Shown: one piece after another, positions 18,595-48,180 of the stretch
Numbering within the stretch: the first letter of the stretch is position 1
Layout: every line of letters begins with the position of its first letter
Source: an uncultured Bifidobacteriaceae bacterium
GTDB lineage: Bacteria; Verrucomicrobiota; Verrucomicrobiia; Limisphaerales; UBA11358
NCBI GenBank assembly: GCA_964413165.1
Contig: CAYPSF010000001.1
Coordinates: 1,238 to 65,237, forward strand
DNA: 64,000 bases
Direction of reading: 5' to 3'
Translations under genes and position numbers: made by a program
Notes under the pieces: generated by a model
Told to the model about the DNA's origin: nothing
The model's input: only the letters and a program-made list of their open reading frames with translations
The model's database searches: none

Positions 18595-18657
18595 GATCCC
18601 CGGGCAATCGCCTTGCCCGCGGATGGAAACCCGCCATACTGGCGCGGAACCGCTCTT

Positions 18658-21066: not shown

Positions 21067-21093
21067 ACGCTTGTGGCCGGCCCGCGTGTTTAC
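21063..21093. terminator. Possible bidirectional hairpin between convergent genes
   Basis: gtaaacgc-ttgtggccggccc-gcgtgtttac. The arms include both stop codons and there is an internal GGCCGGCC palindrome. No clear U-tract. Confidence 0.3.
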
Positions 21094-21878
21094 ACCGAAA
21101 CCGCTTTTTCCGTCGCCGGTTTCCCGTGCGCCCGGTAAAGCACATCCACCACGTTGCGCAGATATTGCTCGTCGGCGACCCCGTCCAGCGCCTCGGCGGG
21201 AAAATCGACCTTGGCCCGGAAATGCGCGGCCAGATCCCCGAACAATTCCACCCGCGCCACCGAGTCAAATGCCTCGCGCCTTAACAGCGCCTGCAGGGCG
21301 ACGTCCGCCTCCGTCGGGGAGACCCGCTGGCGCAGGCGGGCAGCCAGGTGCGGGTATTGCCGGAGTGAGTTGTACTTGCCGGCGAGCAATTGGTCGAGGT
21401 CCGGTTCGGCGCGGCGCGGATTCCGGATGACGATGGTATTGGCGGCGATGTCGCCCAGGCGCTGGCATTGGGAGTTGAACCAGCAGGTCGCGCCGCCGAC
21501 AAAATAAAACAGCGGCAGCGAGTCCACAAACCGGAGCAGGTTGCGCACGACGATCTGGTTGAATTGCAGCCGCATCCCTTCCACGTCCACCACGCGCAAC
21601 CGGAACAGTTTTTTGCCAATGGTCTGGCCGCGCCGGCTCCACTCAAAAAAAATGCCGTAGCCGATGCTGATGACAAAATAGCTGATGATGTAAAGGGCGG
21701 TGGCGACGTTCCCGCCAATCAGCGCGAGCAGATTGAAGGCGGTCCCCAGGAGCATCATCGCCGCGGTGATGCAAAGCTGATCGATGAACCACGCAAAAAA
21801 CCGCGTCACCGGCCCCGCCAGCAGTTGCGAGAAGACGATGCCCTCGGGCGTGCGGATGAACAGCATGCTCGTTTTCAT
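21090..21878 (-). CDS. RDD-family membrane protein
   Basis: 262 aa. N-terminal GPVTRFFAWFIDQLCITAAMMLLG is RDD-like, with multiple TM segments. It overlaps the upstream gene by 4 bp. Confidence 0.75.
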   Translation of the reverse strand: MKTSMLFIRTPEGIVFSQLLAGPVTRFFAWFIDQLCITAAMMLLGTAFNLLALIGGNVATALYIISYFVISIGYGIFFEWSRRGQTIGKKLFRLRVVDVEGMRLQFNQIVVRNLLRFVDSLPLFYFVGGATCWFNSQCQRLGDIAANTIVIRNPRRAEPDLDQLLAGKYNSLRQYPHLAARLRQRVSPTEADVALQALLRREAFDSVARVELFGDLAAHFRAKVDFPAEALDGVADEQYLRNVVDVLYRAHGKPATEKAVSV

Positions 21879-22891
21879 GCGTCAGGGTTTTCGGGGCTCG
21901 GGTCCGGGCGGCTTCCTGATTTGGCCAGGAACACCGAAAGCAAAACCAGTTCCACGCTGCCAAAGGCGATTTTGGCAGAGTAGGGAATGACCGGCTCGTG
22001 ATATTGCGAGAGAAACGCCTCCACGAATCCCGCCCAGACCAGCAGCACGCCGACGCCAAAAATCAGCGTGACGACATCGCCCGAGATTTCGCGCAGCCGC
22101 GTCCGCAGCGAGGCGCGGCTGCCCCGGCCGATGAGCGCCCGCGCCAGCATCAGGCCGGCCTGGCCGGCGATGAGGATGGCCGGGATTTCCACCACGCCGT
22201 GTGGCATCAGCCAGCCCAGGAGAAATTTGAGCTGTCCGTCGGCGATGTAATCGACCGAAATCGCGCCGAGGATGACTCCGTTGTAAAACAGCATAAAGAT
22301 GGTGCCGACGCCCCAGGTCATGCCGAGGGCGAGGGTGAAGACGGACACCTTGATGTTGTGCGTCATCAGATAAGCCGAGAACGAAGACCGATGTCCCGCC
22401 AGGCGGTTTTCCGTGCGGCTCTCCTCCTGTTCGACCCGTTCGCGAGGTCGCAGCTGGTCATGGCCGAAGGGCATGGTGACGTGGCGCGAGTCCGGATCGA
22501 AGGTGGTGGCCAGTCCGCCGAACGCACAGCCGGCCAGCGTGATGGCGACGGAGAGGTAAAAGGCCCGGACGTGGCGGCGGAAGGTGCGGGGGAGCGTCTG
22601 AAAAAACCATTGCAGCGGAAAAATCCGGCGTTGTTGAGCCCGCGTTTCGTGAATTTCCCCGTAGGAACGCGCCACCAGGTTTTCCAGGTACCGGCGCGTC
22701 TCCGGTTCCGAGGACAACGTGGTGATTTTGGCCAGATCGGCGGCCGTGCGTTCGTAAAGCTGATGAAAGAGCTGCAACTGCGGGAGGGTCATCCGCAGGT
22801 CCGGCTCCGCTTCCAGCCGGTCCAGCATCCGTTCGAGTTCGGTCCAGAAAGGCCGCCCGGTGGCAATAAAGCGTTGTAAATCAACAATCAC
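21875..22891 (-). CDS. SpoIIM-like (DUF95) integral membrane protein
   Basis: VSVFTLALGMTWGVGTIFMLFYNGVILGA...LMPHGVVEIPAILIAGQAG signature. I chose the GTG start forming a GTGA overlap with the DUF58 stop. The ORF track extends to 23020. Confidence 0.7.
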   Translation of the reverse strand: MIVDLQRFIATGRPFWTELERMLDRLEAEPDLRMTLPQLQLFHQLYERTAADLAKITTLSSEPETRRYLENLVARSYGEIHETRAQQRRIFPLQWFFQTLPRTFRRHVRAFYLSVAITLAGCAFGGLATTFDPDSRHVTMPFGHDQLRPRERVEQEESRTENRLAGHRSSFSAYLMTHNIKVSVFTLALGMTWGVGTIFMLFYNGVILGAISVDYIADGQLKFLLGWLMPHGVVEIPAILIAGQAGLMLARALIGRGSRASLRTRLREISGDVVTLIFGVGVLLVWAGFVEAFLSQYHEPVIPYSAKIAFGSVELVLLSVFLAKSGSRPDPSPENPDA

Positions 22892-24279
22892 AACAACTGC
22901 CTTTGTTTTACGCTCAAATATTGCGAAACCAGTTCGGCGCTCAAACGCTCGTGGCTGAGCAGTGAGAACCGCACCCCGCGCCGCTGCAGGACCTTCTGCA
23001 GCTCGCGCAGCTTGTGCCACTGCAAATGGCCGCCGAGCTGGCCGTACAAATCATCCAGGCCGGCAACCGCGGGATCCGTGAAGAGCGGCTTCACGCCCGG
23101 CATGGGCAGCATGTTCACCAGCACCAGGTGCTGCCGCCGGATCAAATCCAGGTTGCGGACAAAACTTTCCGCCAGCGCCGGGTCGTCCAGCGCCGTCAGG
23201 AAAACCAGCAGGGCGCGCCGCCGCAACCGCAACCGGATGAACGTGCACAATTCATCAAAATCCGGCGTGGCGATTTTGGGTTCGAGGGTATAAAGCGCGT
23301 CGCGGCAGGCGGTGTAATGGGCCTGGCCGTTCTTGGCCCGCACAAATTTTTCCACCCGGTCCGTGAACGTCAGCAATCCGAACAAGTCGCCCTGCTGTTC
23401 CGCCGCCAGCCCGAGCACCAGCGCGGCCGTCACAAACCGCTCTAAAGTGGTTGTCGAGGGTCGAGGGTCGAGGGTCGAGGGCGAAGACTGCTTGTCCGGC
23501 GCCCGCCTTTCGGTTCGCGACTCCCGCCCCGGCATGCGGGCGCTCAAGCGCGAGGCGTCCACGATCACGTAAACCTCCTGCGTCCGTTCGATTTGAAAAA
23601 CCTTCGTGATCGGCTTGCCCCGCCGCGCGGTCGCCTTCCAGTGAATTTCCGTGTAGTCGTCCCCCGGTACGTATTCGCGCAGTTTCTCAAAGTCGCGGCC
23701 CTTGCCCACTTGCCGCTGCGCATGCACGCCAAAGGCGCCCCGGTTCAGGAACAGGGCCGCGAGGTTTTTCCGTTCGTTGAGCAGGTTGGGGTAAACGCGG
23801 ATTTCCGACTGCACCGGGACGGTCTTGCGCACGGCCCAGAAGCCGAGGGGGGACCCGCCTTCAACGTAAGCCGCGTTCAGCCGGTAATTGCCGCGCTGGC
23901 GCGGCGTACAGGGCCAGGTCAGCCGCGACCATTCGCTTTGCGCCGGCAAAAGGGCATCCAGTTCTCCGGACTCGACCTGAATTTCAGGCGGCCAGGCCAG
24001 CGCAACCCTTAAATGGCGCCGGTGCTGCCGTTCATTACGAATCCGCAATTCCAGTTTTGCCGCCCGGTCTTTCGACATGCGCGCGACGGCGGGCAGTTCC
24101 ACGCCGATGCCCGCCAGGCTTTGGCGGGTCCCGAGGGCGTCGGCCAGCACCACCACCAGCAGCCCGCCGATGCACAGCAGGGCAACGCCCGCCGCCGGGG
24201 GAGACACCGCCCCGATCAGCGCGAACGGTAACATCACCGCCGCCACCCAAAACAACAATCTGGTGCGCGGAACGATCAT
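22888..24279 (-). CDS. DUF58-domain protein (MoxR partner)
   Basis: 463 aa. Two N-terminal TM segments. REYVPGDDYTEIHWKATARRGKPITKVF is the DUF58 signature. It contains an internal 4x7-bp tandem repeat. Confidence 0.85.
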   Translation of the reverse strand: MIVPRTRLLFWVAAVMLPFALIGAVSPPAAGVALLCIGGLLVVVLADALGTRQSLAGIGVELPAVARMSKDRAAKLELRIRNERQHRRHLRVALAWPPEIQVESGELDALLPAQSEWSRLTWPCTPRQRGNYRLNAAYVEGGSPLGFWAVRKTVPVQSEIRVYPNLLNERKNLAALFLNRGAFGVHAQRQVGKGRDFEKLREYVPGDDYTEIHWKATARRGKPITKVFQIERTQEVYVIVDASRLSARMPGRESRTERRAPDKQSSPSTLDPRPSTTTLERFVTAALVLGLAAEQQGDLFGLLTFTDRVEKFVRAKNGQAHYTACRDALYTLEPKIATPDFDELCTFIRLRLRRRALLVFLTALDDPALAESFVRNLDLIRRQHLVLVNMLPMPGVKPLFTDPAVAGLDDLYGQLGGHLQWHKLRELQKVLQRRGVRFSLLSHERLSAELVSQYLSVKQRQLL

Positions 24280-25235
24280 CGCGGGACGGCCAGTTGCTGG
24301 AGGATTTGCTGGATGACTTCCGTCACGGTCAGGCCTTCGATTTCAAATTCCGGCCGGAGAATCAACCGGTGCTCCAGCACCGGCGGGGTCATGGTTTTGA
24401 TGTCATCGGGCGTGACAAAATCGCGGCCGGATATGGCGGCATAAGCTCGCGAGGCCATGATGAGCGATTGCGTGGCGCGCGGTCCCGCGCCCACCAGGAC
24501 GCTTTCGTGCTGCCGCGAGGCCCGGACGATGTCCACGAGATACCCGACCAGTTCATCCCGCAGGACGATGGCGGCCAGCCCGTCGCGCAGGGCCGACAGG
24601 TCCGCGGCTTTGATGACCGGCTGGACCACGCCCTGGGCCAGCAGGGTTTCGGGCGCGTCCTTCGTCATCGTGCGCTGGGCGAGTGACAGCTCCTCGGCAC
24701 GGTCCGGCGTTTTCATCGTGATTTTGAGCATGAACCGGTCTTTCTGCGCCTCGGGCAGCGGATAAGTGCCTTCGTATTCAATCGGGTTTTGCGTGGCGAA
24801 CACGGTGAAATTCGGCGACAACGGATGCGTTTCGCGGTCGATGGTCACCGCCCGTTCCTGCATGGCCTGCAGCAGCGCGGATTGCGTCTTGGCTGGGGCG
24901 CGGTTGATTTCATCCGCCAGCAAGAACGAGGTGAAAAGCGGGCCTTTGATGAGCGAGAATTCATTCCGTTGCAGGTTGAAAACGTTGGTGCCGGTAATGT
25001 CGGCGGGCATCAGGTCGGGGGTGAACTGGATGCGGGCGAAATCGGTGCCGAGCACGTGCGCCAGCGTGCGCACGAGCAGGGTTTTGGCGACGCCTGGCAC
25101 GCCTTCAATCAATGCGTGGCTGCCGGTGAAGATGGCGATGAGCGCCTTTTCGATGACGTCGTGCTGGCCGATGATGACCTTGCCGGTTTCTGACCGTGCC
25201 TGCGTGAGCACTTCCTTGAGTCGTTCAGTATTCAT
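24276..25235 (-). CDS. MoxR-like AAA+ ATPase
   Basis: Internal start MNTERLKEVLTQ...IIGQHDVIEKALIAIFTGSHALIEGVPGVAKT (Walker A), LLADEINRAPAKTQSALLQAM (Walker B). The long Arg/Gly/Pro-rich N-extension in the ORF track (to 25694) was rejected. Confidence 0.9.
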   Translation of the reverse strand: MNTERLKEVLTQARSETGKVIIGQHDVIEKALIAIFTGSHALIEGVPGVAKTLLVRTLAHVLGTDFARIQFTPDLMPADITGTNVFNLQRNEFSLIKGPLFTSFLLADEINRAPAKTQSALLQAMQERAVTIDRETHPLSPNFTVFATQNPIEYEGTYPLPEAQKDRFMLKITMKTPDRAEELSLAQRTMTKDAPETLLAQGVVQPVIKAADLSALRDGLAAIVLRDELVGYLVDIVRASRQHESVLVGAGPRATQSLIMASRAYAAISGRDFVTPDDIKTMTPPVLEHRLILRPEFEIEGLTVTEVIQQILQQLAVPR

Positions 25236-26491
25236 GATTTTGGTGGTGAGTTGCGGGTTCCCAGAACGGAGCAGATTTGTTTGTAGGTTTCCACCGGCTG
25301 CCGGTCTTTCGGCGGCCGGGAAGCTTCCGCCGCCCAAATGGCCTCGGCCTGCTGGACCCGGGCGCTGGCCGGCCGGGCGTGGAACCCCGCGGATTTTTTC
25401 CATTGGGCAAAACAGGTGCCGAGCAGATCGCGCGGGGCGATGCTGCGCCGCAGCAGATTGATGAACCCCGAGGCCGCGTCTTTTCCGGCCACATAGATTC
25501 GTTGTTCCCGGTCCCTGTGCGGCGGCGCGAGACTCAGGGAATTTTTCCAGATGAACAATCCGGCCAGCAGAATCAGACCCGCCAACAGTCCGTGCAAGCG
25601 GTATTGGCGCATCAACGCCGCCACTCCGGGGGTTTCCAGGACGCCCAGGTGCCCCTCGTCGAACACGACGTTCGGGTTGGGGCCGACGAGCCACGCCAGC
25701 AAATCCGGGTGCCGGTCCCTGGCCATCGCCTCGTTGCTGACAAAATAGGAATCCGTGGCGAAGATGATCGAGCCCATGCCGAACCGGCGTTCGATAACCA
25801 CCGCGTTGGTGTCGCGCGCATAAATCACGCGCCAGGCGCCGTCCAGGTTGATGAAAACAGTGCCGCTATGCCACTCGAGGGTCCGTGGCAGCGGCAGATC
25901 CGTCCGGTTCACCACCGGCACCGGCACGTAAACATCGCCGGCCTGCGCCAGCTTTTGGAAATCCGTGTGCAGCCCCCAGCGTTCATCCAGCCGGACCTCC
26001 TCGTCGTCCGCCTTTTTTTTCCTTTTCTTCGCCGGTTTTTCCGGCGTCATTTTTTCTTTCTTCGCCCTGGACTGCGCCGATTTCACCGAATTGGTTTCGT
26101 CGTCGTCTTCATCGTGAAACGCATACGATTCGGTTTGCGGGAAAAAGGTGACGACCAGCCGGCCGCCGCGGCCCAGAAACCCCTCAATCTCCCCGTACAG
26201 ATCCTTGGGCATCCGCTGCCATTCGTAGCGGGACGCGGCGAGGTGCAGATAAACCGTATGCGGCTCCTCCGGCAGGCGGTTGGCGACGCTGAAATCGCGG
26301 CGGGCGGATACCCCCGGCACCTTGCCGAGGCTTTCGTAAAACACCATTGTGCCGAGCGGGTCGGAACGCAAAGACGAGTAAGCCGGATAAACATCGCCCA
26401 CCTCGAACCGGAGCTGGAACAGCTCGACTAGGCCCAGAACCAGCGCGGCGGCGCACCCCAGCAGGAGCAGGATGGGAAAATATTTTTTCAT
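25232..26491 (-). CDS. DUF4350-like membrane-anchored protein with acidic/basic insert
   Basis: 419 aa. N-terminal TM segment. ...VVFDEGHLGV... and a C-terminal TM segment are typical of DUF4350 members of MoxR operons. It has a charged insert DEDDDETN...KKRKKKADDEE. Confidence 0.6.
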   Translation of the reverse strand: MKKYFPILLLLGCAAALVLGLVELFQLRFEVGDVYPAYSSLRSDPLGTMVFYESLGKVPGVSARRDFSVANRLPEEPHTVYLHLAASRYEWQRMPKDLYGEIEGFLGRGGRLVVTFFPQTESYAFHDEDDDETNSVKSAQSRAKKEKMTPEKPAKKRKKKADDEEVRLDERWGLHTDFQKLAQAGDVYVPVPVVNRTDLPLPRTLEWHSGTVFINLDGAWRVIYARDTNAVVIERRFGMGSIIFATDSYFVSNEAMARDRHPDLLAWLVGPNPNVVFDEGHLGVLETPGVAALMRQYRLHGLLAGLILLAGLFIWKNSLSLAPPHRDREQRIYVAGKDAASGFINLLRRSIAPRDLLGTCFAQWKKSAGFHARPASARVQQAEAIWAAEASRPPKDRQPVETYKQICSVLGTRNSPPKS

Positions 26492-28194
26492 CCTGCGTCT
26501 TTCAGTCTATCCACGTTGGCCGCGAACCGGTCCACCAGCCCGCGGCTGACCTCGTGGGTGCCGTACCAGACGCACTCAAACGACAGGAGGTTTTCGCCAA
26601 AAACCGGCAGCAAGCCGGGAAACGCATGTCCCCGCCGGCGCAATTCACGTTCGTAATCGCGGTTGGATTTGAAGCGCGCGATGCTGATCAGGTTGCGCGC
26701 GGCCAGATGGGAAAGGCTGGCGAGGTAAAACGCGCGCATCGCCAGGCGGAACTCGCCGCGTTCGAGCAGCTCGCGGCCCAGTTTCGTCCAGCCGTCCTCG
26801 GGCAACTGGTCGGCCCGCACATTTTCATCGGCCAGGTCCGGCAAGGACCGGACCGGCTCGCTGGCAACGGTGGCGCGCGACGGCCGATCGCGCCAGGTGC
26901 GATAAAGCAAGATCGCGAGCGCGGCCAACACTGCCGCCCCCAGCCCGTAAAGCAGGATTTGCAGCGTCAGGATCCAGCCGTATCCGTCGGATCCTGAGGC
27001 GGAATCAATCCGCCGATGGGGAAACAGCTTCCGCCACCATTTGTCCAGCCAGTCGGAAAACGACCGGGCCCATTGGCGCAGCATTTTGCCAGCCTTGGCG
27101 AAGAAGCGCGTGATGGCACTGTCGCCGGCGTCCGATTCCGCGATCTTTTCGCGGGGCATCCGCCAGGCGTACTTGTTTTCGTGGATGGTCTGGTTGATGG
27201 CGCGGTCCAGATCCGTCGCGGAGACCCCCGGGGAAGCCGGGGCCGGAACCGGCGCCCCGGACGGGGGCACGGCAGGTGGCGGCGCATCGGCGGCCCGGGC
27301 GGGCGAAGCGCAAACCAGACCCAGCAGCAACACCAGCAGGATCGCCGGGGCCGGCGGAGAAGCGGCAAAGGAATTCAGTTCGGCTCGCAAATCCTCGCCG
27401 GATTCCAGCGCCTCGCCGTAAAAACAGCGCAGGACAAAAATGGCTTTCAGGATCGGGTCCACGCACAGGTAGGTCAGGCCGGCCATCCCGGCAAAAAACG
27501 TCGTGTTCAACAGGCTGAGCGGATCCCGGGTGAAAACCGATTCGACGCCGGACAACATTTTGATCAATTGCGGCACGAACAGGCCAACGGTGACCCAATT
27601 CAGGAAAACATAAAGGCCAAACCCCGTCATGATGAGGAGCAGGATGATATTTTGCCGCGGCCAGAGCCGCCAGAGCCGCCACGCCTTCCGCAGGATCGCT
27701 TTCGTATCGGCCGACTGGCCGTCGGTCAGCGCGGTTACATTCTGGAAAAAGGCGAGCAGCCAGGCAATCACGGGTGCCAATACCAGCGCCAGCGGGAGGA
27801 AGACATAGGCCCCCAGTGCCAGGACCGCCAGCGGCACCAGTCCCCAGGACTGCAGGAAAGACTGCAGGACGATCACGCGCCCGCAGCGGCGGACATTCCA
27901 GTGCGGCACCGGCTCGGCGGCGAGGTGCGCCCGCAACCGCCGCGCAAAAATGACCTGCCAGAATTTCATCCAGATAAACAATCCGGCCAGGCCCAGAGCG
28001 GAATCGGCCAGATGCTGGTCCGCGAATGGGTTGCGGCTCATGTCCGCCCAGAAATACAGCAGTCCCAGCACAAACGGGACGGCCCCCAGATAATAAACCG
28101 CCAGGGTGGCGGCCGGCGCGGTGCGCAACCCATGGGTAGCTTCTTCGATCAGATCGAAGGCGCCTTTGCCCGGTTGCCGGTGCGCGGGTTTCAT
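26488..28194 (-). CDS. Polytopic membrane protein with C-terminal DUF4129-like domain
   Basis: 568 aa. Multiple TM helices. The C-terminus FRLAMRAFYLASLSHLAARNLISIARFKSNRDYEREL is DUF4129-like. Confidence 0.6.
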   Translation of the reverse strand: MKPAHRQPGKGAFDLIEEATHGLRTAPAATLAVYYLGAVPFVLGLLYFWADMSRNPFADQHLADSALGLAGLFIWMKFWQVIFARRLRAHLAAEPVPHWNVRRCGRVIVLQSFLQSWGLVPLAVLALGAYVFLPLALVLAPVIAWLLAFFQNVTALTDGQSADTKAILRKAWRLWRLWPRQNIILLLIMTGFGLYVFLNWVTVGLFVPQLIKMLSGVESVFTRDPLSLLNTTFFAGMAGLTYLCVDPILKAIFVLRCFYGEALESGEDLRAELNSFAASPPAPAILLVLLLGLVCASPARAADAPPPAVPPSGAPVPAPASPGVSATDLDRAINQTIHENKYAWRMPREKIAESDAGDSAITRFFAKAGKMLRQWARSFSDWLDKWWRKLFPHRRIDSASGSDGYGWILTLQILLYGLGAAVLAALAILLYRTWRDRPSRATVASEPVRSLPDLADENVRADQLPEDGWTKLGRELLERGEFRLAMRAFYLASLSHLAARNLISIARFKSNRDYERELRRRGHAFPGLLPVFGENLLSFECVWYGTHEVSRGLVDRFAANVDRLKDAG

Positions 28195-28205
28195 TTATGA
28201 ATTCG

Positions 28206-28297
28206 GGAAACAACCAACAACCAACAGCGAACATCCAATAAACGCGAAGGTCCGACCATTGGATGTTGAGCGTTGGATGTTCGATGTTCGATGTTCA
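28206..28297. repeat. Intergenic hairpin element with 7-bp-periodic arms (CAACAAC / GTTGGAT type)
   Basis: Left arm aaacaaccaacaaccaacagcgaacatccaat. Right arm attggatgttgagcgttggatgttcgatgttcgatgttca. The right arm ends on the stop codon of the upstream gene. Confidence 0.7.
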
Positions 28298-28621
28298 TTC
28301 TTGATCCACCCAGTTGACCTGCCAGAGGGTCTTTTCGTGGAACGAAGTCGGCAGTTTCGTCAGGCTGTCGCCGATGAGAAAAAAGAAAAACCAGGCGATG
28401 AGGAGGCCGAACACGCACTGAACGAGGCGCAACAGGCGCACGAACGCCGGCCGCCGGGTGACCGGCCGGCGCGCCAATTTTTTCAGGCAGGCGGCGCAGA
28501 CGACCCGGTCGTCGTGCTCCGTGATGCATTCGCGGCAGAAACACTGGCCGCACTCCGGGCACTGCGCCACGGCTTCACGGGCGGCATGGTTGAAACAGCG
28601 CTGCTGGGCCAGATTTTGCAT
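28295..28621 (-). CDS. Small B-box-type zinc-finger protein with C-terminal TM anchor
   Basis: 108 aa. CFNHAAREAVAQCPECGQCFCRECITEHDDRVVCAACL, followed by the hydrophobic stretch LLRLVQCVFGLLIAWFFFFLI. Confidence 0.6.
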   Translation of the reverse strand: MQNLAQQRCFNHAAREAVAQCPECGQCFCRECITEHDDRVVCAACLKKLARRPVTRRPAFVRLLRLVQCVFGLLIAWFFFFLIGDSLTKLPTSFHEKTLWQVNWVDQE

Positions 28622-28639
28622 GGTTCAGCGTCGGGTTGA

Positions 28640-29254
28640 TCAGGAGGGAAGCGGCGGCGCGGCCGGATTGTCCGCGGCCGGGGCGGGCAGTACGGCGCCA
28701 TCCGGGGCCGGGCTGGCGGCGGAGTCGGCCGTCGACTGTCCGCGGGAGGGAATTCCCTCCGGCGGCAGTTCGCCTTGTGCGGCGGTAATAAAGGGCCGGA
28801 CCCGGTCGAGCACCTGGCGCGCGCGCCGGACCCGGTTGAGCGACGGCAGTTCCTCGATTTGCACGGCGGTGCGCACAAAACAGGTGCAGGTCGGCCCCAG
28901 CAGGCTGTTGATCAACAGCGGCAGAACGAAGACCGCGATGGAAACAAGCCAGGCAACCATGACCGCCCCGTCTTTTCGCGGGAGGGAGAACAGGGCGTTC
29001 GCCAGACCGGCCAGGCAAATGACAATTGGCACCAGCAGCACCCCGTTCCAAATCGTTCGGCGATTGGTGAGAACCACGCTGAGGGCCTGGATGTCGCGAA
29101 AATAGAAACGCTTGTAATTTTCTGTGTAACCGCTGGAGTCGATGCAAAGCAGATGGTCCTTGCCCAGCCACAGGCTTGAGCGGGATATGGAAAAGACGCC
29201 AAAAGCCGATCGGGACCGGGCGCGGGTCAAACGTTGATATTCCTTCTCGGGCAT
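28640..29254 (-). CDS. Hypothetical membrane protein (2 TM, Pro/Ala-rich tail)
   Basis: 204 aa. TM segments WNGVLLVPIVICLAGLANALF and VMVAWLVSIAVFVLPLLINSLL. No recognisable family. Confidence 0.5.
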   Translation of the reverse strand: MPEKEYQRLTRARSRSAFGVFSISRSSLWLGKDHLLCIDSSGYTENYKRFYFRDIQALSVVLTNRRTIWNGVLLVPIVICLAGLANALFSLPRKDGAVMVAWLVSIAVFVLPLLINSLLGPTCTCFVRTAVQIEELPSLNRVRRARQVLDRVRPFITAAQGELPPEGIPSRGQSTADSAASPAPDGAVLPAPAADNPAAPPLPS

Positions 29255-29257
29255 GGG

Positions 29258-29842
29258 TCAGGAATCGTGGTGGGTGGCGAATATAACCAGGAGCACGCCC
29301 CAACCGGCAATTTGCATCAAGGCCAGGACAATGGCGGCGACCAGGCGAATTTTTGTCCGGTGGACGATGCTGCGGGGCGCGTTCCAATAACGGATGGCCA
29401 CATACAAGGCGGCCGGCGCAGTGACCAGGGTGAAATAAAAGATCAGCAGCGGATAAATCGCCAGGGACAGGGCAATGCCATCATAAAGCGTGCGCTGGTT
29501 TTCCAGGCTCTTGATTTTACCCTTGGTTTTTCCCGTTTCCAGGCAGGCGGGACAGAAATGCTGTCCATGGAGTTCGCAATCGCACAGGGCGCAAAGAAAG
29601 CGGCCGCACCCCTGGCAGGGCCGCACCGCTTTTTTTTGCGGATGATAAAAGCAGCTCGACTCGCCTTCCACCATGATGGTTTCGCCGCTTTGCCCCGGGT
29701 GGATGGGGCGGAACAGCGCGGGGAAAACTTCCACCCGCAGGGGCACGCCACAAGCCGGGCAGGGCGCCAAATCCGGCTGGTTGAAGACCCCGTCCAACAG
29801 CCAGGCCTGGCATTTGGGGCATTGAACCAGCGGCGTATTCAT
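29258..29842 (-). CDS. Zinc-ribbon + B-box-type zinc-finger membrane protein
   Basis: 194 aa. CPKCQAW...CPACG ribbon. CFYHPQKKAVRPCQGCGRFLCALCDCELHGQHFCPACL B-box-like module, paralogous to the one in 28295..28621. C-terminal TM helices. Confidence 0.6.
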   Translation of the reverse strand: MNTPLVQCPKCQAWLLDGVFNQPDLAPCPACGVPLRVEVFPALFRPIHPGQSGETIMVEGESSCFYHPQKKAVRPCQGCGRFLCALCDCELHGQHFCPACLETGKTKGKIKSLENQRTLYDGIALSLAIYPLLIFYFTLVTAPAALYVAIRYWNAPRSIVHRTKIRLVAAIVLALMQIAGWGVLLVIFATHHDS

Positions 29843-29845
29843 GGG

Positions 29846-30625
29846 CTATTTGAAAACCACGCGCGTGTTGCAGATGTAATCATGCAAAGCGCGTTTCTGT
29901 TCGTCGAAGCCGGCGATGATAAAGCCGATCAGACAAGTCATGTAACTGAGGATTTTGGCAAAATACCGGCCAAACGCGCGCCCATACGAGACGCGCCCGC
30001 CATCCGCCGTCACCACCATGATTTTGCAGGCCATCTTGCCCAGCGTTGCCCCATATTTGCCGATGAGCACTGTTTCATAGGAAATACCGATGGTCAGTTG
30101 AATGACCATCAAGACCAGTTGCAACGCGAGGGCGCCCTTGGGTTCCACGCCGATTGCCTGGCGTGCGCTCATTCCGGCGATCAACGAAATGCACATGTTC
30201 ACCGCTCCAAGAATCAAACCGTCCAGGAAAACCGCGGCAAATCGCGTCCAAAACCCGGCATAGCGCAATCCTCCGGTATTGAGCTGCGCACCTTCGGCCA
30301 GTTTTTGCATGAAGACCGGCTTGCAATTGGCGCAGATGCGGACTTCGCCGTGCCGGATCATATCCTGGATCGGAAAAATTTTGCCGCATTCGGCGCAAAC
30401 CGCTTCCGTGGTTTCCCCGGAAGCCTGGCCGGGGCTGCCGGCGGTTGGCTGTCCGGGCGCCGACGGCGGTCCGCCTCCCGCCTCTCGCTGGGGCACCCAG
30501 GCGGCCATGCCTTCGTGCCAGACCAGCGTGTCGGGCTGGATTTTTCCGCTGCGCACCAGTTCCTCGAACTGCGCGTCATTCACCGGGCCGGTTTGCTGTC
30601 CTTGGTCAACGTAATACCAGTTCAT
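29846..30625 (-). CDS. GYF_2 (DUF4339) - zinc ribbon - RDD family membrane protein
   Basis: 259 aa. MNWYYVDQGQQTGPVNDAQFEELVRSGKIQPDTLVWHEGMAAWVP (GYF-like), CAECGKIF...RICANCK, YAGFWTRFAAVFLDGLILG (RDD). Confidence 0.75.
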   Translation of the reverse strand: MNWYYVDQGQQTGPVNDAQFEELVRSGKIQPDTLVWHEGMAAWVPQREAGGGPPSAPGQPTAGSPGQASGETTEAVCAECGKIFPIQDMIRHGEVRICANCKPVFMQKLAEGAQLNTGGLRYAGFWTRFAAVFLDGLILGAVNMCISLIAGMSARQAIGVEPKGALALQLVLMVIQLTIGISYETVLIGKYGATLGKMACKIMVVTADGGRVSYGRAFGRYFAKILSYMTCLIGFIIAGFDEQKRALHDYICNTRVVFK

Positions 30626-30821
30626 GTTTGGCCTTTGGAGATAAGATCGATTGGTCTGGTTCGGCTCAACTTGATTGCCCCGGAAAATGCAGATTTAAAG
30701 CGGAAATGGCAAAATAAATCTATTCGGGCATCACTGCGGCCGACCGGCCGGACAATGGCGGTCGCAAAATTGTCAAAGGATGGGTCGTTCGAGATTGTCT
30801 TATTTGGTAAAAGAAAGCTGC

Positions 30822-31382
30822 ATGGGCGACACGGACGAAGAAAAAATCTGGGTGTTGCAAAGCCGGAATGGCGACCCGTCGGCTTTTGAATCGCTGGTTC
30901 GCCAGCATCAACGCATGGTTCATTCGCTCACGTTTCGTATGACCGGCTCCCTGGCGGACGCCGAGGATCTCGCGCAGGAGACCTTCGTCCGTGCCTACCG
31001 GCAGCTGGATTCCTACCAGGGCAAGGCAAAATTTTCCACCTGGCTGTACCGCATCGCCGTCAACGCCTGTTTGAACTGGCGCCAGCGTGAAAGCCGGCGT
31101 GAACAAATTCATGCTCATTGGGCCGAATCCAACGACGCCTTGCGGCCGGAACCGGAAACTCCCGCCGGCGAGGACGCCCCGGCCCGGGAGGTACAGGCGG
31201 CCCTGATGAAACTGCCGGCCAAGCAGCGCGCCGCCATTGTCTTGACCGTTTACGACGGGCATAATCATGCCGAAGCGGCAAAAATCCTGGGCTGTTCGGA
31301 AACGACGGTTTCCTGGCGGATTTTTGCCGCGCGCCGGAAACTGAAACGGCTGTTGAGCGGCAAAGGAGGTCGGAATGAATGA
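30822..31382 (+). CDS. ECF-type RNA polymerase sigma-70 factor
   Basis: FESLVRQHQRMVHSLTFRMTGSLADAEDLAQETFVRAY (region 2) and HAEAAKILGCSETTVSWRIFAARRKLK (region 4). The ORF-track start at 30780 is also possible. Confidence 0.85.
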   Translation: MGDTDEEKIWVLQSRNGDPSAFESLVRQHQRMVHSLTFRMTGSLADAEDLAQETFVRAYRQLDSYQGKAKFSTWLYRIAVNACLNWRQRESRREQIHAHWAESNDALRPEPETPAGEDAPAREVQAALMKLPAKQRAAIVLTVYDGHNHAEAAKILGCSETTVSWRIFAARRKLKRLLSGKGGRNE

Positions 31383-31974
31383 CCATGATTTGGAAAAGAA
31401 ACTGAAGGCCGTGCCGGTTCCGGCGCGGGCTGAAGACTATTGGGAATCATTTCCCCGGCTGGTATCAGCCCGGTTGCGCACGTCCCCGGCTGGGCGCCCG
31501 GTGCTGGAACATCGTTGGCTGCCCCGGCTGGCGTGGGGCGGCGGCATCGCTTTCGCCTGCCTGATGATCGGGTTCGCCGTCGGTCATTGGCGCGGACGGA
31601 CGGAGAAGAACGATGCTTACGCGCTGCTGCAAAACGGGAAGATGCTGCAGGAGGTATTGACGTTGTTCCCGAACCGCGTCCGGGCCATCACGCAGGACGA
31701 ACACGGGGTGCAACTGGTGCTGGCCGACCAGGCCGATGTGCCGGTCTCGACCCCGATTTATGTTCACATCTGCAACGGCAAACAATGTTCGTCGCTGGTG
31801 ACCTTCAGCGGCCAGGAACTCGAAATCGCCGGGCAGAAGGTGACGGTGCTTTTGAACGCGGAAGGCGGCGTGATCGTGGCCGGGCCCCGGTTTGCCTGGT
31901 CGAGCGACCAGCCGGCCCGCGTGAGCGGCGGCTTGAAGATTGAGGCCAGAAGATTGAGTTCGATCAACCTCTGA
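31375..31974 (+). CDS. Putative anti-sigma factor (single-pass membrane protein)
   Basis: 199 aa. It overlaps the sigma gene stop by 8 bp. One TM segment (LAWGGGIAFACLMIGFAV). Position-based call; no zinc-binding anti-sigma motif seen. Confidence 0.5.
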   Translation: MNDHDLEKKLKAVPVPARAEDYWESFPRLVSARLRTSPAGRPVLEHRWLPRLAWGGGIAFACLMIGFAVGHWRGRTEKNDAYALLQNGKMLQEVLTLFPNRVRAITQDEHGVQLVLADQADVPVSTPIYVHICNGKQCSSLVTFSGQELEIAGQKVTVLLNAEGGVIVAGPRFAWSSDQPARVSGGLKIEARRLSSINL

Positions 31975-31984
31975 GGAAATATCC

Positions 31985-34900
31985 GTGAAAAAACTTCTCT
32001 GGATCCCGCTCGTTTTGATTCTGGCGACCCGGTTGCTGGCGCAGTCGAATGCGCCGATTCGGCTGGCGTTGTTGGCGGAGACGGACGAGTCGTCCACGGC
32101 CGCGGATGTGTTGACGGCCCGGCTTTCCGGGAACCCCAAAATCCAGCTGCTCGAACGGAATGAGATTGAAAAGGTCTATCGCGAGCAAAAATTATCGGCG
32201 GCCAACAGGGATTATCTGAAGCTGGGCCAGGTTCTCGGCGCGGATGGATTGCTGTTGCTTGATGTGATCCGGACACCGCAGGCGACCAACCTGATGACCC
32301 GGCTGATTGCAGTGAAACCGGGGGTGGTTTTGACGGAAGTCGGTTTTTCCTGGCCGCTGAAAGACCTTTCCTCATGGGCGGATTCAGCGGCGACCTATCT
32401 TGATTCTTTTTTGCCGAAGTTGACGGTTTTGGTCAAAGACGCCATCCCCATTTCAGTGGTGAACCTGCGTTCAGCCGTCCAGTCGGCCGAGGCGAAGGAA
32501 ACGGAACGGCAATTGAAGCTGTTGACCGTCCAGCGGTTGAGCCAGGAGCGGCAGTTCTTTGTACTGGAGCGGCAACGGATGCAGTTACTAGGCGAGGAAA
32601 AGGAACTGAAAGCGGATGAGTCGGCGTTCTGGAACGGCAGTTACCTGCTGGAAGGGGTGGTGGATCAAAATGGTTATGCCAAAGACACCATCACCATCAA
32701 TGCGCGCCTGACGCCGAAGGGTGGCGCGCCGTTGCTGATGGAAGTCAGCGGCCGGCGCACGGATTATGCCGAAGTTATCAACCGGCTGGCGGCAAAGGTG
32801 GCCGAGTTGTTGAAGGTCCATTCCACCGTCGAGGAGTGGAATGCAACCGCTGAGGCACAACAATATTTTGACGAGGCGCAATGGGCGATGAAGTGGGGAG
32901 TTTACGCGGAGGCACAGGCGGCGGCGGACTCGGCGTGGGCTTTGGGAAAGCACGATCAGGATTGTGCCATGGTGCGAATCAAGTCATATGAAAGCACCCT
33001 GCATACGATCCCGATCGACCTGGAAGGAGGCATTGACGCGGCAATCGTTAATGACAAGTCGCAGCAAATTTTTTTGGCCCGGGAAATAAAGGAGACTTTA
33101 GCCGCGCACGTCGCGGTGATTTTTGAAACCAACCGAGGCGGGATCAGTTATCTTTGCCTGGCCCAATTACCCGATCCCCGGGACATCGACCGCGCCTTTC
33201 ATGCCTTGGAACTATATTATGCCTTCAGCCGGACCCTGCCCGAAGCGGCACCCATGGTGAGTCGCGACCCGCGAACCACCCGCTGGCACAATTCGGATTG
33301 GTATAATCTGGGCCTGGAAGACCTGGCCGCGGCATCGAAGGTCCTGCTATCCTTTCAACTGGTTCCCGAATCTCAAAAGCCGGTGGCTGACAAGCTGGCG
33401 GAATTGCGCGCGATGGCCCGCTCGGTTGCCGGATGGATATCCCAATCGCCGTCAGTGCGTGACAGTTATTTTGTCGGTGAAAGACTGGCGACCCATGACG
33501 AGCTGGATGAAACGATCTATTCGAAGCCCAACATTTTCAGCTGCAAACTGAAGTGGGGCAGTCTCTGGCAGGAAACACCCGCGGACTGTATAACGCTTTA
33601 CCGCGAATTGATGGCCAGTCCGGTTTTTGGTTATATTCACAATCCACTTTGGTCGCACCGGCTGCAGTTGCCGGCGGAGGCCATGGACCCCGATCACCGG
33701 TTGGAACCGCCACGACTCATTGCCTGGAACGAAAAGGACCGGCAGTTGATTCCAGTCATTTGGAACAATTTCATCCGGGAACTGGATGGTTCAACCAATG
33801 TCCTTTGGCAGTTGGAAGCAAAAGCCCTCCAATTTGCCGACGCCACCGATGAACGACAGATGGGGTTGACGTTCACCAACTTTTTCGAAGCGCTCTTAGC
33901 GAATCGCGACCTGTTTTTGGCCCATAATGTCGAGCTGCTTTACTTGAATTGGGGTGCGGACAACCTGATGGAGGTGAGGCGTGGTCTTGACCTGTCCTTG
34001 CCAACCCCGGACTCATTGGTGCGACAGTTTTATTCCCAATATCGCCCCAAGCTCGAGGCGCTGGACCAGGAGTACTGGGACAAGACCGTACCCCGGATAC
34101 AAGTGCGAGAGGCCTTTGGAAAGCAGGTCGAATACTTGAAAAATAACACCCCTTACGATTGGGCTAAATTCAATCAGATCTTCGAGTTGCGGGAGTACAC
34201 CAAGGCCCAGGCAACGGAGATCCTCCCGCTCCTGGCCGCCTACCAGTCGAATCTCATCGCCCTGGCGGAAGGGAAATCACTTCCCGATCGGTTCAAAGCA
34301 ACCAATGACAGCCGTTGGGTGGAACTCGTTGCCGACAGACGCGCCAAGGAAATCCTGAATGCACCCGCGCCCGTTTCGAAAACGGAGGCGGTTCAAAACC
34401 TGAATTCCCGGCCGGTCGCGGTTGTGCCTCCGCCGGTCGTTGCCAGGCCGTCCGGGGTGCTGTCCGAAACGGTCACGAATGTGTTGCGGGTCGAAAAATA
34501 TCTGAAGCTGCCCCAGGAACAATTGCCGAAAGAGGAAGAGATTTTGGAAGGGGAGGACCGGTGGGATTTCAAAATCGCCGCCAGCCGCTGGTGTGCCGGC
34601 AAACTCGTGTTGGACCTGCGTTACAGCACCATGCTCTATCGGAACGGCGTCGGTGCGGGAACCACCCGGGCGTTGGCCGCCATTTTCAATCCCAAGGACC
34701 AAAGCTGGGAGCTGGTCCGGTACCCGTCCAGCGATGATTCCCCCGATCATCTTCCCTGGGAGCTGGAGCGAGTGCCGGCCGAAATTTTTCAAGGCCGTTT
34801 CTATTTCCGGGACGAGGACAAAATCAAACAATATGATTTCCCCACCCGCCAGTGGAAAACCCTCGACGTTCGCGTGCAACCGAATACCGGACTGGATGCC

Positions 34901-36481
34901 CTGGATGGACATCTATACGCCGTCAACCGCGAAAGCATTTTTGAAATCACCGATGGCGGCAAAGGGACGCGCATCCTGGCCAGTACCCGCCGGAGACCGG
35001 CGGCATCGGCGTTGGATTCGCTGGACAGCCTCGGGTCGCCCGTGCTTTTTTCCAGACCGAACCACTCGCTGGGGGTCGTCATCGGCAGCAAGGTGTTTGT
35101 GTGGAATGGGAGCGACTGGACCGGATTGTTTTCCCTGGATTTCCCCCGGTCTTCCCCCCAGGCGGAAGCGCTTGACGACGCGGTCATCTTTCGTTTCAAG
35201 TCACCGGATTATTCAGCCATGCTTTGGTTTTGGGATAAAAGCAAGCCGGCGCCGGAACTGTCCCTGTATGAAAAATCAAAGCCGCCACCTTATGTTACCC
35301 TGGGCTCAAAACCCGCACCCCCGCCGGCAAAGGCGGTGTGGACATCGCCAGGAGGCGATTCCCTCGTGAGTGCCCCCGGGACTTTTTGGAAATCGAACCT
35401 CTATTTCTTCGTTGAGCACGCGAAGGTGATCGAGGTGGATCCCCACCTGACGGCGGAAGAAAAAAGCGGTGAGAAACCGCTGGGCAGCATGGAACGTGGC
35501 CGCCGCCAGTGGACCATAACCGACAAAGACGGTTATCATGCCAAACTGGTTTGCCTCAGTCGCGATTGCGCCGAACCGATTGTCGTCCCGTTGAAATTTG
35601 ATTTGGAACACGGCCAGCCTCCGCTCTACAGCCTCGGAGCCAGGATGGCCCCTCCCGGTTCGGACGCGGGTCCCACCTGGATTTTTTTCACATCGGATAC
35701 GCTCTACGTCGGCCAGCCGGAGGCCCTGGGCATCTGGGCGATTCCCGTTTCTGAAGTTGAAGCCGCCGTTGCAGCGCAAAGGCAGGTCATGCTTGGTAAC
35801 AAAGCGCGGGCAACCCGGGACGCGGAACAGCGCCGCAAGGATATGCTCGCAAAATATGATCACAATCATAACGGGTCCATCGATCCCGACGAAAAAGAAG
35901 CGGCCCTGGATGACCCCGCCTATATCGAATCTGAAATGGACGCGATTGACGCCAATCACAATGGCCGGCTGGAGGCAACGGAACTCGCCTGGTTCGACGC
36001 CAACCAGAACCAGATTCTGGACCCGAAGGAACAGGCCGGGATCGACCTGGCCCAACATTGGCTGGCGGCAAGGCGCTTGAAGGAATTTGATGCCAATGAC
36101 GACGGATTCCTCGACCGCTCAGAATTCAATAACTTATGGTTGGCGGAACCGGAACTGGCCGACCCAATTTTCCGGACCGCGCCCGCGCCCTTCCTGGATA
36201 ACAACCACGACGGCCAGCTTGATCTTGGGGAACTGGCGACATTCCTGAACCAGCAGACAAGCAGAACGCTTTTGGTGCCGGGCCTGTCCAGAGCCATCCT
36301 TTATGAGCAGATGGGGATCAGCCCCCGCGAGCAGGTTGACCCCCGGCAGATGTTCAAAGCCACGGTGGAATTTTACTGGCAACATCCGGGCGGCATCACC
36401 AATGGCCCGCCCTTTCACCGGGGCATCCCGCCCGGCCGGCGTGATGGTACCAATGGGATGCCCAGCGGCAAAGTTCCGTGA
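31985..36481 (+). CDS. Giant secreted protein: CsgG/LpoB-like N-module, long helical/unknown body, C-terminal EF-hand cluster
   Basis: 1498 aa. GTG start after GAGGA. Signal peptide MKKLLWIPLVLILATRLLAQS. N-module IRLALL...LLERNEIEKVYREQKLS...LGQVLGADGLLLLDV. Five EF-hand loops near the C-terminus. Confidence 0.8.
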   Translation: MKKLLWIPLVLILATRLLAQSNAPIRLALLAETDESSTAADVLTARLSGNPKIQLLERNEIEKVYREQKLSAANRDYLKLGQVLGADGLLLLDVIRTPQATNLMTRLIAVKPGVVLTEVGFSWPLKDLSSWADSAATYLDSFLPKLTVLVKDAIPISVVNLRSAVQSAEAKETERQLKLLTVQRLSQERQFFVLERQRMQLLGEEKELKADESAFWNGSYLLEGVVDQNGYAKDTITINARLTPKGGAPLLMEVSGRRTDYAEVINRLAAKVAELLKVHSTVEEWNATAEAQQYFDEAQWAMKWGVYAEAQAAADSAWALGKHDQDCAMVRIKSYESTLHTIPIDLEGGIDAAIVNDKSQQIFLAREIKETLAAHVAVIFETNRGGISYLCLAQLPDPRDIDRAFHALELYYAFSRTLPEAAPMVSRDPRTTRWHNSDWYNLGLEDLAAASKVLLSFQLVPESQKPVADKLAELRAMARSVAGWISQSPSVRDSYFVGERLATHDELDETIYSKPNIFSCKLKWGSLWQETPADCITLYRELMASPVFGYIHNPLWSHRLQLPAEAMDPDHRLEPPRLIAWNEKDRQLIPVIWNNFIRELDGSTNVLWQLEAKALQFADATDERQMGLTFTNFFEALLANRDLFLAHNVELLYLNWGADNLMEVRRGLDLSLPTPDSLVRQFYSQYRPKLEALDQEYWDKTVPRIQVREAFGKQVEYLKNNTPYDWAKFNQIFELREYTKAQATEILPLLAAYQSNLIALAEGKSLPDRFKATNDSRWVELVADRRAKEILNAPAPVSKTEAVQNLNSRPVAVVPPPVVARPSGVLSETVTNVLRVEKYLKLPQEQLPKEEEILEGEDRWDFKIAASRWCAGKLVLDLRYSTMLYRNGVGAGTTRALAAIFNPKDQSWELVRYPSSDDSPDHLPWELERVPAEIFQGRFYFRDEDKIKQYDFPTRQWKTLDVRVQPNTGLDALDGHLYAVNRESIFEITDGGKGTRILASTRRRPAASALDSLDSLGSPVLFSRPNHSLGVVIGSKVFVWNGSDWTGLFSLDFPRSSPQAEALDDAVIFRFKSPDYSAMLWFWDKSKPAPELSLYEKSKPPPYVTLGSKPAPPPAKAVWTSPGGDSLVSAPGTFWKSNLYFFVEHAKVIEVDPHLTAEEKSGEKPLGSMERGRRQWTITDKDGYHAKLVCLSRDCAEPIVVPLKFDLEHGQPPLYSLGARMAPPGSDAGPTWIFFTSDTLYVGQPEALGIWAIPVSEVEAAVAAQRQVMLGNKARATRDAEQRRKDMLAKYDHNHNGSIDPDEKEAALDDPAYIESEMDAIDANHNGRLEATELAWFDANQNQILDPKEQAGIDLAQHWLAARRLKEFDANDDGFLDRSEFNNLWLAEPELADPIFRTAPAPFLDNNHDGQLDLGELATFLNQQTSRTLLVPGLSRAILYEQMGISPREQVDPRQMFKATVEFYWQHPGGITNGPPFHRGIPPGRRDGTNGMPSGKVP

Positions 36482-48071: not shown

Positions 48072-48180
48072 AAAAACATTCAACATTCAACATCGAACAT
48101 CCAATGAAGAAAATTGGGAGACAGGGACGCGATCGGCGTGACGTTGGATTGAAGGTTGGGCGTTGAATGTTGGATGTTTC
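48072..48180. repeat. Intergenic hairpin element with 7-bp-periodic arms (AACATTC type)
   Basis: Left arm aacattc aacattc aacatcg aacatcc aat. Right arm ttggatt gaaggtt gggcgtt gaatgtt ggatgtt. The arms are reverse-complementary with mismatches, separated by a ~38-nt spacer. Confidence 0.8.

Follow-up and report, generated by a model that had tools for sequence, protein, structure and literature searches.

A conserved ten-gene MoxR-DUF58 string opening with four genes for GYF, RDD and B-box-like zinc-finger membrane proteins

Four consecutive genes (28295-30625, minus strand) in a 64,000-nucleotide stretch from an uncultured bacterium of the Limisphaerales (GenBank assembly GCA_964413165.1, contig CAYPSF010000001.1, positions 1,238 to 65,237; hereafter the window) appear to be the first four cistrons of one conserved, operon-like string of ten genes and not a separate system. 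These four genes, designated g1 to g4, encode a GYF_2-zinc ribbon-RDD protein, two membrane proteins with a B-box-like zinc finger and a protein with two transmembrane (TM) helices, while g5 to g10 form a MoxR-DUF58 module. A single unit is proposed because of the packing of the genes, their synteny across phyla and the occurrence of g1-g2 fusions. The function favoured here, with moderate confidence and from sequence comparisons, is that g1-g4 would act as adaptor or regulatory subunits on the cytoplasmic face of an inner-membrane remodelling complex built around MoxR and DUF58, including the roles suggested below for the B-box and GYF domains. The elements of the string are listed in their order of transcription.

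g1, 29846..30625, minus strand: GYF_2 domain, CxxC..CxxC zinc ribbon and RDD membrane domain (259 aa)
g2, 29258..29842, minus strand: N-terminal zinc ribbon, B-box-like binuclear finger and C-terminal TM helices (194 aa)
g3, 28640..29254, minus strand: two-TM protein with a beta domain split by the TM hairpin and a Pro/Ala spacer (204 aa)
g4, 28295..28621, minus strand: B-box-like finger, one TM helix and a short conserved outer tail, P.SFHEGT.W (108 aa)
REP-like palindrome, 28196..28294, no strand: (G/C)AACATC heptamers in the g4/g5 gap
g5, 26488..28194, minus strand: polytopic membrane protein carrying DUF4129 at its C terminus (568 aa; Pfam DUF4129 1.7e-6)
g6, 25232..26491, minus strand: DUF4350 membrane-anchored protein (419 aa; Pfam DUF4350 7.2e-10)
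g7, 24276..25235, minus strand: MoxR-type AAA+ ATPase (319 aa; AAA_3 9.6e-62, AAA_lid_2 5e-22)
g8, 22888..24279, minus strand: DUF58 protein (463 aa; Pfam DUF58 9.7e-21)
g9, ~21875..22891, minus strand: SpoIIM-family polytopic membrane protein (Pfam SpoIIM 5.9e-37)
g10, 21090..21878, minus strand: second RDD membrane protein, ending in a conserved soluble domain (262 aa; Pfam RDD 1e-21)

The ten open reading frames (ORFs) are tightly packed on the minus strand from 30625 to 21090, a span of 9,536 bp. This layout agrees with the original prediction, made from the window sequence, that four ORFs co-directional with a MoxR module lie at its upstream end and that RDD proteins bracket a string of about 9.5 kb. 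The bracketing proteins are g1 and g10, which score 95.8 and 78.1 bits, respectively, against a cut-off of 24.1 (Pfam PF06271). The predicted tight spacing is present within g1-g4 (gaps of 3, 3 and 18 bp) but not between g4 and the MoxR block, where the gap is 100 bp. From g5 to g10, every start overlaps the preceding stop (ATGA or GTGA), with 4-nt overlaps at g5/g6, g7/g8 and g9/g10. The start of g7 was placed at ATG 25235 because it gives an ATGA overlap with the g6 stop and because the orthologue in a related locus, L001, has 319 aa. The start of g9 is probably the GTG at 22891, which gives a GTGA overlap with the g8 stop; the longest ORF extends to 23020, and the L001 orthologue has 333 aa. 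DUF58 proteins are the usual partners of MoxR ATPases, and in the window the MoxR (AAA_3) gene is directly followed by the DUF58 gene, in keeping with the order MoxR, then DUF58 or vWA, by which such chaperone-like modules are recognized. The predicted products are nine membrane or membrane-anchored proteins and one ATPase (g7). The N-terminal TM domain of g5 (residues 1-290; 28194-27325, minus strand) is strongly conserved and carries many polar motifs within the membrane or close to it (PFvLg.L.FWaDMSr, WMK, QN, lwP.QN, lNtTf and YLc.DP..K....LRCFyGe). This half of the protein has no family model, and its alphaproteobacterial equivalent is much shorter.

Relatives of g2 were confirmed at 500 places in a collection with one genome per species and at no fewer than 551 on metagenome contigs; given these numbers, the system can be considered common in soil, peat and sediment bacteria. 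Two samples of loci were compared. The genome sample consisted of the 80 best loci (g2 50-88% identical), in which the ten window proteins were located by tblastn and by blastp on called ORFs. The metagenome sample consisted of 80 loci from a search re-anchored on a distant member (37-45% identical to that member), in which the genes were located with hidden Markov models built from the genome sample. Presence was counted only where the contig was long enough to reach the gene, as follows.

g1: 78/78 genome loci, immediately upstream of g2
g3: 79/79 genome loci, 55/55 metagenome loci
g4: 77/77 genome loci, 44/44 metagenome loci
g5: 71/72 genome loci, 26/26 metagenome loci
g6: 64/68 genome loci, 20/20 metagenome loci
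g7: 58/63 genome loci, 19/19 metagenome loci
g8: 57/63 genome loci, 17/17 metagenome loci
g9: 57/62 genome loci, 16/16 metagenome loci
g10: 54/59 genome loci, 14/14 metagenome loci

The full string g1-g10 is complete and collinear on one strand in 52 of the 58 genome loci that were fully covered. Median intergenic distances in the genome loci range from -4 to +7.5 nt, and start and stop codons typically overlap. Every gene was found in the metagenome loci wherever the contig reached it, with order and strand unchanged. The B-box genes do therefore travel with the MoxR module, both in the complete genome loci and through to g10 in all 14 metagenome loci that extend so far. The last conserved gene is g10 in both samples, and the unit can be delimited as g1-g10 because the flanking genes vary among loci. 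According to their record titles, the loci belong to Verrucomicrobiota, Acidobacteriota, Desulfobacterota/Thermodesulfobacteriota, the UASB14/Moduliflexus group and Nitrospirae; the Desulfobacterota loci include cultured Desulfonema magnum and two closed chromosomes from metagenome-assembled genomes (MAGs). Fusions of g1 with g2 are present in a library of representative proteins, comprising GYF_2+RDD+g2 in P0186 and P0231, RDD+g2 in P0129 and GYF_2+g2 in P0149. None was found within the 161 fetched loci, so that fusions are known only from this library.

The 100-bp gap between g4 and g5 in the window folds as a long imperfect palindrome (-37.3 kcal/mol, z -3.6). Its arms contain three to four tandem (G/C)AACATC heptamers, with inverted copies around a variable centre of 30-40 nt. 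Further copies of this palindrome family are located at ~48088-48179 and ~60777-60874, and all three are intergenic (8 matches versus 0.01 expected). In the relative L001, the palindrome is absent and the orthologues of g4 and g5 overlap by 4 bp, while in the genome loci the g4-g5 distance has a median of -4 nt and is 20 nt or less in 81%. Because of the L001 overlap and this median distance, the gap is a REP-like (repetitive extragenic palindromic) insertion in this genome and not a conserved operon boundary. A terminator between g4 and g5 was considered and rejected, as the element is repeated, REP-like and missing in relatives.

Within the string, g4 is more closely tied to the core genes than to g3. 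It lies directly upstream of g5 (DUF4129) in 75 genome loci and still abuts g5 where insertions part it from g3. One such insertion, in L081, consists of 7 kb of signalling genes, including histidine-kinase and response-regulator-like genes. In two related loci with UASB14/Moduliflexus labels (L065:11232-12479 and L042:8205-9425), an extra gene lies exactly between g3 and g4. Its product is a membrane protein of 406-415 aa that contains a zinc ribbon together with an HEFGH metalloprotease motif and has a weak match to Peptidase_M50B (8e-5, below the cut-off). This gene was found in two of the 81 genome-derived loci screened and is not present in the window. Because g4 stays with g5 despite these insertions, the string looks like two sub-blocks, g1-g2-g3 and g4-g5...g10.

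The core module is also found without the first four genes. Paracoccus and Rhizobium replicons have the order DUF805, two unnamed membrane proteins, MoxR, DUF58, SpoIIM and RDD, with one or two DUF805 membrane proteins in the slot of g1-g4 (L085:5236-5676 and L086:4491-5590). Prevotella has a divergent RDD gene followed by SpoIIM, two ORFs, DUF4350, MoxR and DUF58. Neither a g1-g4 homologue nor a B-box-like motif was found within 10 kb of the Paracoccus, Rhizobium and Prevotella cores. In mycobacteria, the same core families are encoded at Rv3689-Rv3695 and are co-regulated in M. chelonae (PMC8191103). Because the core occurs without them in Paracoccus, Rhizobium and Prevotella, g1-g4 are, on comparison of these loci, a lineage-specific extension at the front of an older core module. 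The alternation of DUF805 and g1-g4 suggests that front ends are exchangeable. Haloarchaeal and Bacillus plasmid SpoIIM matches were set aside, as that of Halostagnicola is not in a MoxR module and others are weak partial matches.

The proteins encoded by g2 and g4 are similar to each other over the finger and TM region (BLASTP E-value: 5e-7, 28% identity) and share the ligand spacing CxxH-x8-CxxC-x4-CxxC-x9-CxxC. The original prediction that two adjacent genes carry the same B-box-like module is thus correct as to the module but not as to adjacency, since g2 and g4 flank g3. Among 32 g2 sequences with identities down to 37%, the four ribbon cysteines (C8, C11, C28 and C31) and the eight finger ligands (C64, H67, C76, C79, C84, C87, C97 and C100) are invariant. 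The same eight ligand columns are invariant in a joint alignment of 37 g2 and g4 domains, and their spacing would suit a cross-braced site for two zinc ions. The g2 family comprises 1,995 proteins at 90% clustering and 1,377 clusters at 50% identity (E<=1e-3); with a family of this size and the 12 invariant Cys/His residues, the finding is far beyond chance.

Pfam-A and NCBIfam contain no model for g2, g3 or g4 as families. For the finger, zf-B_box (PF00643) is the best Pfam family for full-length g2 and g4 of the window (E-values: 0.015 and 0.009; 15.9 and 16.6 bits), and for the isolated g2 domain the match improves to 2.2e-4 and 21.8 bits, all of these scores being below the gathering cut-off of 24.1 bits. 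When 37 isolated g2 and g4 domains were each scanned singly, zf-B_box was the top family for all 37 (best E-value: 5.5e-7), an ANCHR-like B-box was matched by 34 and no RING family by more than 11. The profile search proposed earlier for the B-box motif therefore supports it for the family, but not at gathering score for the window's own copies. Against sequences from the PDB, a profile of the domain matched the RNF4 RING (1.6e-5), the TFIIH p44 finger (2e-4) and TRIM/MID B-boxes (0.05-0.15). One distant Clostridium relative is annotated as a B-box zinc finger protein. An AlphaFold2 (AF2) model of g2 has a mean confidence (pLDDT) of 88, with helices at residues 120-151 and 165-191. On this evidence, the finger is well supported as a binuclear treble-clef for which the B-box is the best family assignment; support at the family level is good, whereas the two copies in the window are sub-threshold.

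The product of g1 combines, as originally described, GYF_2 (residues 3-47; Pfam E-value: 2e-17), a zinc ribbon and RDD (residues 122-253; E-value: 3.5e-27). The ribbon has the form CxxC-x17-CxxC with C77, C80, C98 and C101 conserved, and its motif C.ECG...CA.CKP.F.QK..EG is conserved at 90% or more among 71 orthologues. Bacterial GYF+ZnR (zinc ribbon) modules are recognized by a GYF_2 domain at the N terminus, a four-Cys ribbon next to it and a membrane module after these, and g1 has this arrangement. The ribbon and RDD are constant and the N-terminal head varies. GYF_2 is found in most lineages, and in others (e.g. L096, L107, L109, L122, L150, L163 and L166) its place is taken by an additional CxxC..CxxC ribbon at the N terminus and then a long linker rich in proline (MLYGxKCxKCG...APSEAPPRASP...), with the second ribbon and RDD retained. 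To our knowledge, GltJ is the only bacterial GYF+ZnR protein that has been studied. The GYF domain of GltJ binds a proline-rich sequence of AglZ, and the order of GYF, ZnR and membrane module is typical of the PVC (Planctomycetes-Verrucomicrobia-Chlamydiae) clade (PMC11135422).

The product of g3, which matches no Pfam or NCBIfam family, offers a candidate proline ligand. It was originally described as a two-TM protein with a Pro/Ala tail. Both features are present; the tail is a variable low-complexity sequence, and it ends in a conserved motif of the PPxx(S/T) type (PPLPS in the window). Two further conserved motifs, LWLG.DHLL..Y.E.YKRFYF.DIQA and GPTC.C.LRTAVQ.E.LPSL, are predicted to be cytoplasmic and lie on either side of the TM hairpin. 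An AF2 model of g3 (pLDDT 73) has four strands, the TM hairpin, two strands and a helix. The top Foldseek matches of this model are mostly PH-like domains, none of them significant (best E-value: 0.16), and a split PH-like domain in g3 is a guess only; the PH-like fold is a beta sandwich of seven strands with a capping helix at the C terminus. The protein occurs in a short form of ~200 aa, the type found in the window, and a long form of ~350 aa with extra TM helices. A PP motif lies within the last seven residues in 34 of 48 short-form orthologues. Among complete short-form loci, g3 ends in such a motif in 39 of 50 with GYF_2 in g1 versus 1 of 9 without it (Fisher p 2.5e-4), although the test ignores shared ancestry and the signal is gone in lineages with long-form g3. 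This co-occurrence indicates that the g1 GYF domain may bind the C-terminal PP motif of g3.

GYF_2 and paired CxxC motifs are also found elsewhere in the window, outside the operon. A gene at 18613-21066 (plus strand), convergent to g10 and past the end of the operon, encodes a second GYF_2 protein of 817 aa. A TM segment separates its GYF_2 domain (1.2e-7) from a 3-keto-disaccharide hydrolase-like domain at the C terminus. Another membrane protein with a small finger, encoded at 38482-39528 (plus strand), starts with two CxxC pairs, followed by DUF4190 (1.3e-14) and an extracytoplasmic tail that is long.

Both B-boxes and GYF domains bind proteins or peptides, and the model favoured for the string makes use of both. 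We infer for it that the products associate physically, that the front-end domains face the cytoplasm, that GYF and the PP motif make contact and that a client is remodelled. The engine of the inner-membrane complex would be the MoxR ATPase (g7) with its DUF58 partner (g8), and the DUF4129, DUF4350, SpoIIM and RDD proteins (g5, g6, g9 and g10) would make up its body. To this, g1-g4 would add adaptor or regulator modules, probably facing the cytoplasm. The B-box fingers of g2 and g4 would serve as protein- or peptide-binding or oligomerisation modules that either connect sub-block g1-g2-g3 with the core at its g4-g5 end or bind client peptides. A proline motif would be the target of the GYF_2+ZnR head of g1; the most plausible one is the PPxx(S/T) at the C terminus of g3, whose putative split PH-like domain would sit at the membrane surface. 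Powered by ATP hydrolysis, MoxR would then act on a membrane-protein client by remodelling, assembling or releasing it. MoxR ATPases and their vWA/DUF58 partners are described as chaperone-like, in that they release inhibition or insert cofactors (Snider & Houry 2006 and Tsai 2020, as summarized in PMC8926400).

A membrane assembly or quality-control system, as first suggested for these genes, is plausible. It is doubtful that the likeness goes further, to a bacterial counterpart, embedded in the membrane, of the finger-plus-AAA+ machines that carry out quality control in eukaryotes, in which the B-box and GYF domains would read short proline or C-terminal motifs of membrane proteins and hand these clients to MoxR-DUF58 to be extracted, assembled or released.

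Several observations weigh against the adaptor model. No client is identifiable among the operon genes. The orientation of the fingers is uncertain, as a three-TM RDD domain in the g1-g2 fusion would put them outside the cell. To the sub-threshold zf-B_box scores in the window, the non-significant folds of g3 and the shared ancestry and long-form lineages behind the GYF_2-PP association can be added a Foldseek search of the whole g2 model against the PDB. It gave no match at E<=0.001, with the MuRF1 B2 box at rank 12 (probability 0.23, rmsd [root-mean-square deviation] 2.7 A over 30 columns) amid LIM and other small fingers. Desulfonema magnum, whose genome is the only one from a cultured isolate in the genome sample, has g1-g4 with a long g3 and then unrelated genes (L066, NZ_CP061800.1, 2187746-2208306). 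Distal core genes have been lost in L038 and L065, as well as in L042. Finally, the taxon labels of many MAG contigs are unreliable and some are clearly wrong (e.g. 'Bifidobacteriaceae'), so that the phyla named above are to be taken loosely.

An extracytoplasmic function (ECF) sigma factor gene (30780-31382, plus strand) diverges from g1 and overlaps a putative anti-sigma gene of 199 aa (30780-31974 together). Control of the string by this pair was rejected, since the sigma gene was matched by tblastn in only 4 of 81 loci, with varying distance and strand. The pair is followed at 31985-36481 (plus strand) by a gene for a secreted protein of 1,498 aa with C-terminal EF-hand-like Asp-rich repeats, and this gene neighbourhood is not kept at other loci. 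Beyond the other end of the string, the gene at 15536-18520 (plus strand) encodes a protein of 994 aa that has a Ser/Thr kinase-like region at its N terminus, together with a TM segment and numerous WD40-like repeats, as judged by eye from the translation. A defence system was rejected, as PADLOC gave only marginal partial matches (RDD region to PD-T4-6, 2.6e-4; MoxR to mad8, 1.7e-5 over 40 residues). An origin from a plasmid or phage was also rejected: a plasmid collection contained no match to g6 and, for g2, only one remote match of 47 residues.

One alternative to the adaptor model, unlikely although it accounts for several features, is that g1-g4 form a receptor-like TM module that senses a cue from the envelope or the cytoplasm and toggles the MoxR machine without handling substrates. 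ZnR+GYF pairs have been called switch modules, fused to membrane modules and often operonic with receptor-like TM proteins (Attia et al. 2024, PMC11135422). The exchangeable N-terminal head of g1 is typical of sensor or adaptor ends, and the insertion between g3 and g4 in L081 carries two-component-like genes. However, no kinase, cyclase or DNA-binding output domain was recognized in the ten products by Pfam-A and NCBIfam scans. The adjacent ECF sigma gene is not a conserved neighbour, and the predicted extracytoplasmic parts of g2-g4 are very short, which leaves little room for ligand sensing.

It is rather improbable that g2 and g4 instead present membrane or secreted proteins to a membrane-embedded protease usually encoded elsewhere, for proteolytic processing or quality control. 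This follows a 2011 proposal for prokaryotic B-box, AN1 and LIM fingers, which, in the part of it relayed by PMC4506424, ties membrane-linked B-boxes to membrane peptidases (Burroughs et al. 2011). The HEFGH protein encoded between g3 and g4 in L042 and L065 would fit such a role, but its gene is restricted to those two of 81 loci and missing from the window. DUF4129 is elsewhere attached to transglutaminase-like proteins; g5 lacks a match to a transglutaminase core, and no other product of the operon matches a peptidase family.

Transport or homeostasis of ions or metals, with the RDD proteins as cation transporters and the Cys-rich fingers sensing or buffering zinc, is very improbable. Na+(Li+,K+)/H+ antiport has been reported for an RDD protein, and the ~24 conserved Cys/His residues per set of g1, g2 and g4 could bind metal; the ligand spacing of the fingers, however, is of the structural treble-clef/zinc-ribbon type and not of the metal-sensor type, known transporters do not feature a MoxR-DUF58 pair and no metal-regulator gene is conserved nearby. 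That g1-g4 are an independent small system placed beside the MoxR module by descent is likewise highly unlikely and disfavoured: the Desulfonema magnum locus without an adjacent core and the palindrome between the two blocks in the window would fit, but order and strand are kept across several phyla while flanks vary, in most loci the overlap of starts and stops continues across the g4/g5 junction and the palindrome is a repeated, mobile-looking element absent in relatives.

MoxR ATPases are very widespread, but clients are known for few of them. From mycobacteria to Bacteroidota, genomes carry the RDD/SpoIIM/DUF58/MoxR/DUF4350/DUF4129 module, and the window version adds to this core four strictly co-inherited subunits with recognizable interaction domains (B-box, GYF, zinc ribbons and possibly PH-like). 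This front end offers experimental handles, including the C-terminal peptide of g3 with the GYF domain, finger mutants that could uncouple recognition from the motor, and front-end-less or DUF805-fronted versions for comparison, and bacterial B-box domains would thereby gain an experimental context. If the counterpart reading were true, the string would represent a new and widespread ATP-driven system for handling membrane proteins and the first concrete role for prokaryotic B-boxes.

All of the domains are already known separately, as are the annotated core, bacterial membrane B-boxes (PMC4506424) and PVC GYF+ZnR heads (PMC11135422). No description of the ten-gene unit or of the g2, g3 and g4 families was found in the literature covered, which did not include Burroughs et al. 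2011, where part of it is perhaps shown. For the core module, only gene lists were found. The view that the extension lies beyond described MoxR systems thus stands, and the core occurs elsewhere without g1-g4.

Among the closest known systems is the core MoxR module, to which g5-g10 of the window belong; its plasmid copies in Paracoccus and Rhizobium have these families in the same order. The window g5 differs from its alphaproteobacterial counterpart in being more than twice as long, with the conserved polytopic N-terminal domain. The Bat and cmdA-D operons (Bacteroides, Rhizobium leguminosarum RL3499-RL3502, Borrelia and Leptospira) likewise encode MoxR (AAA_3), DUF58 and membrane proteins, and mutants in MoxR-DUF58 operons have envelope and morphology defects (PMC5700661). 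Unlike these operons, the window string lacks BatA/BatB-type vWA-TM, TPR and SH3 proteins; a Pfam scan found no vWA, BatA, BatD, TPR or SH3 match among the ten products. Conversely, the Bat/cmd operons lack SpoIIM, RDD, DUF4350, DUF4129, B-box and GYF genes.

The individual front-end proteins also have relatives in other systems. GltJ of the Myxococcus gliding machinery likewise has GYF beside a zinc ribbon and then a membrane module (PMC11135422). The g1 protein is no orthologue of it, as the NCBIfam GltJ model (NF033761) gives 23.9 bits against a cut-off of 450 and covers only residues 2-48 (GYF); g1 lacks the MglA, AglZ or Glt context, and its membrane part is RDD. The prokaryotic B-boxes of Burroughs et al., as far as PMC4506424 describes them, are likewise small binuclear treble-clefs with TM helices predicted to act on membrane proteins. 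Compared with that account, the constant partner here is the MoxR module, a peptidase gene being present in only two sampled loci. Eukaryotic TRIM/MID B-boxes have a similar pattern (C-x2-H/C ... C-x2-C ... C-x2-C ... C/H-x2-C/H) with two zinc sites. The window fingers differ from them in having seven cysteines among the eight ligands, TM helices in place of a RING and coiled-coil, and a gene neighbourhood in which g2 and g4 have no ubiquitin machinery nearby.

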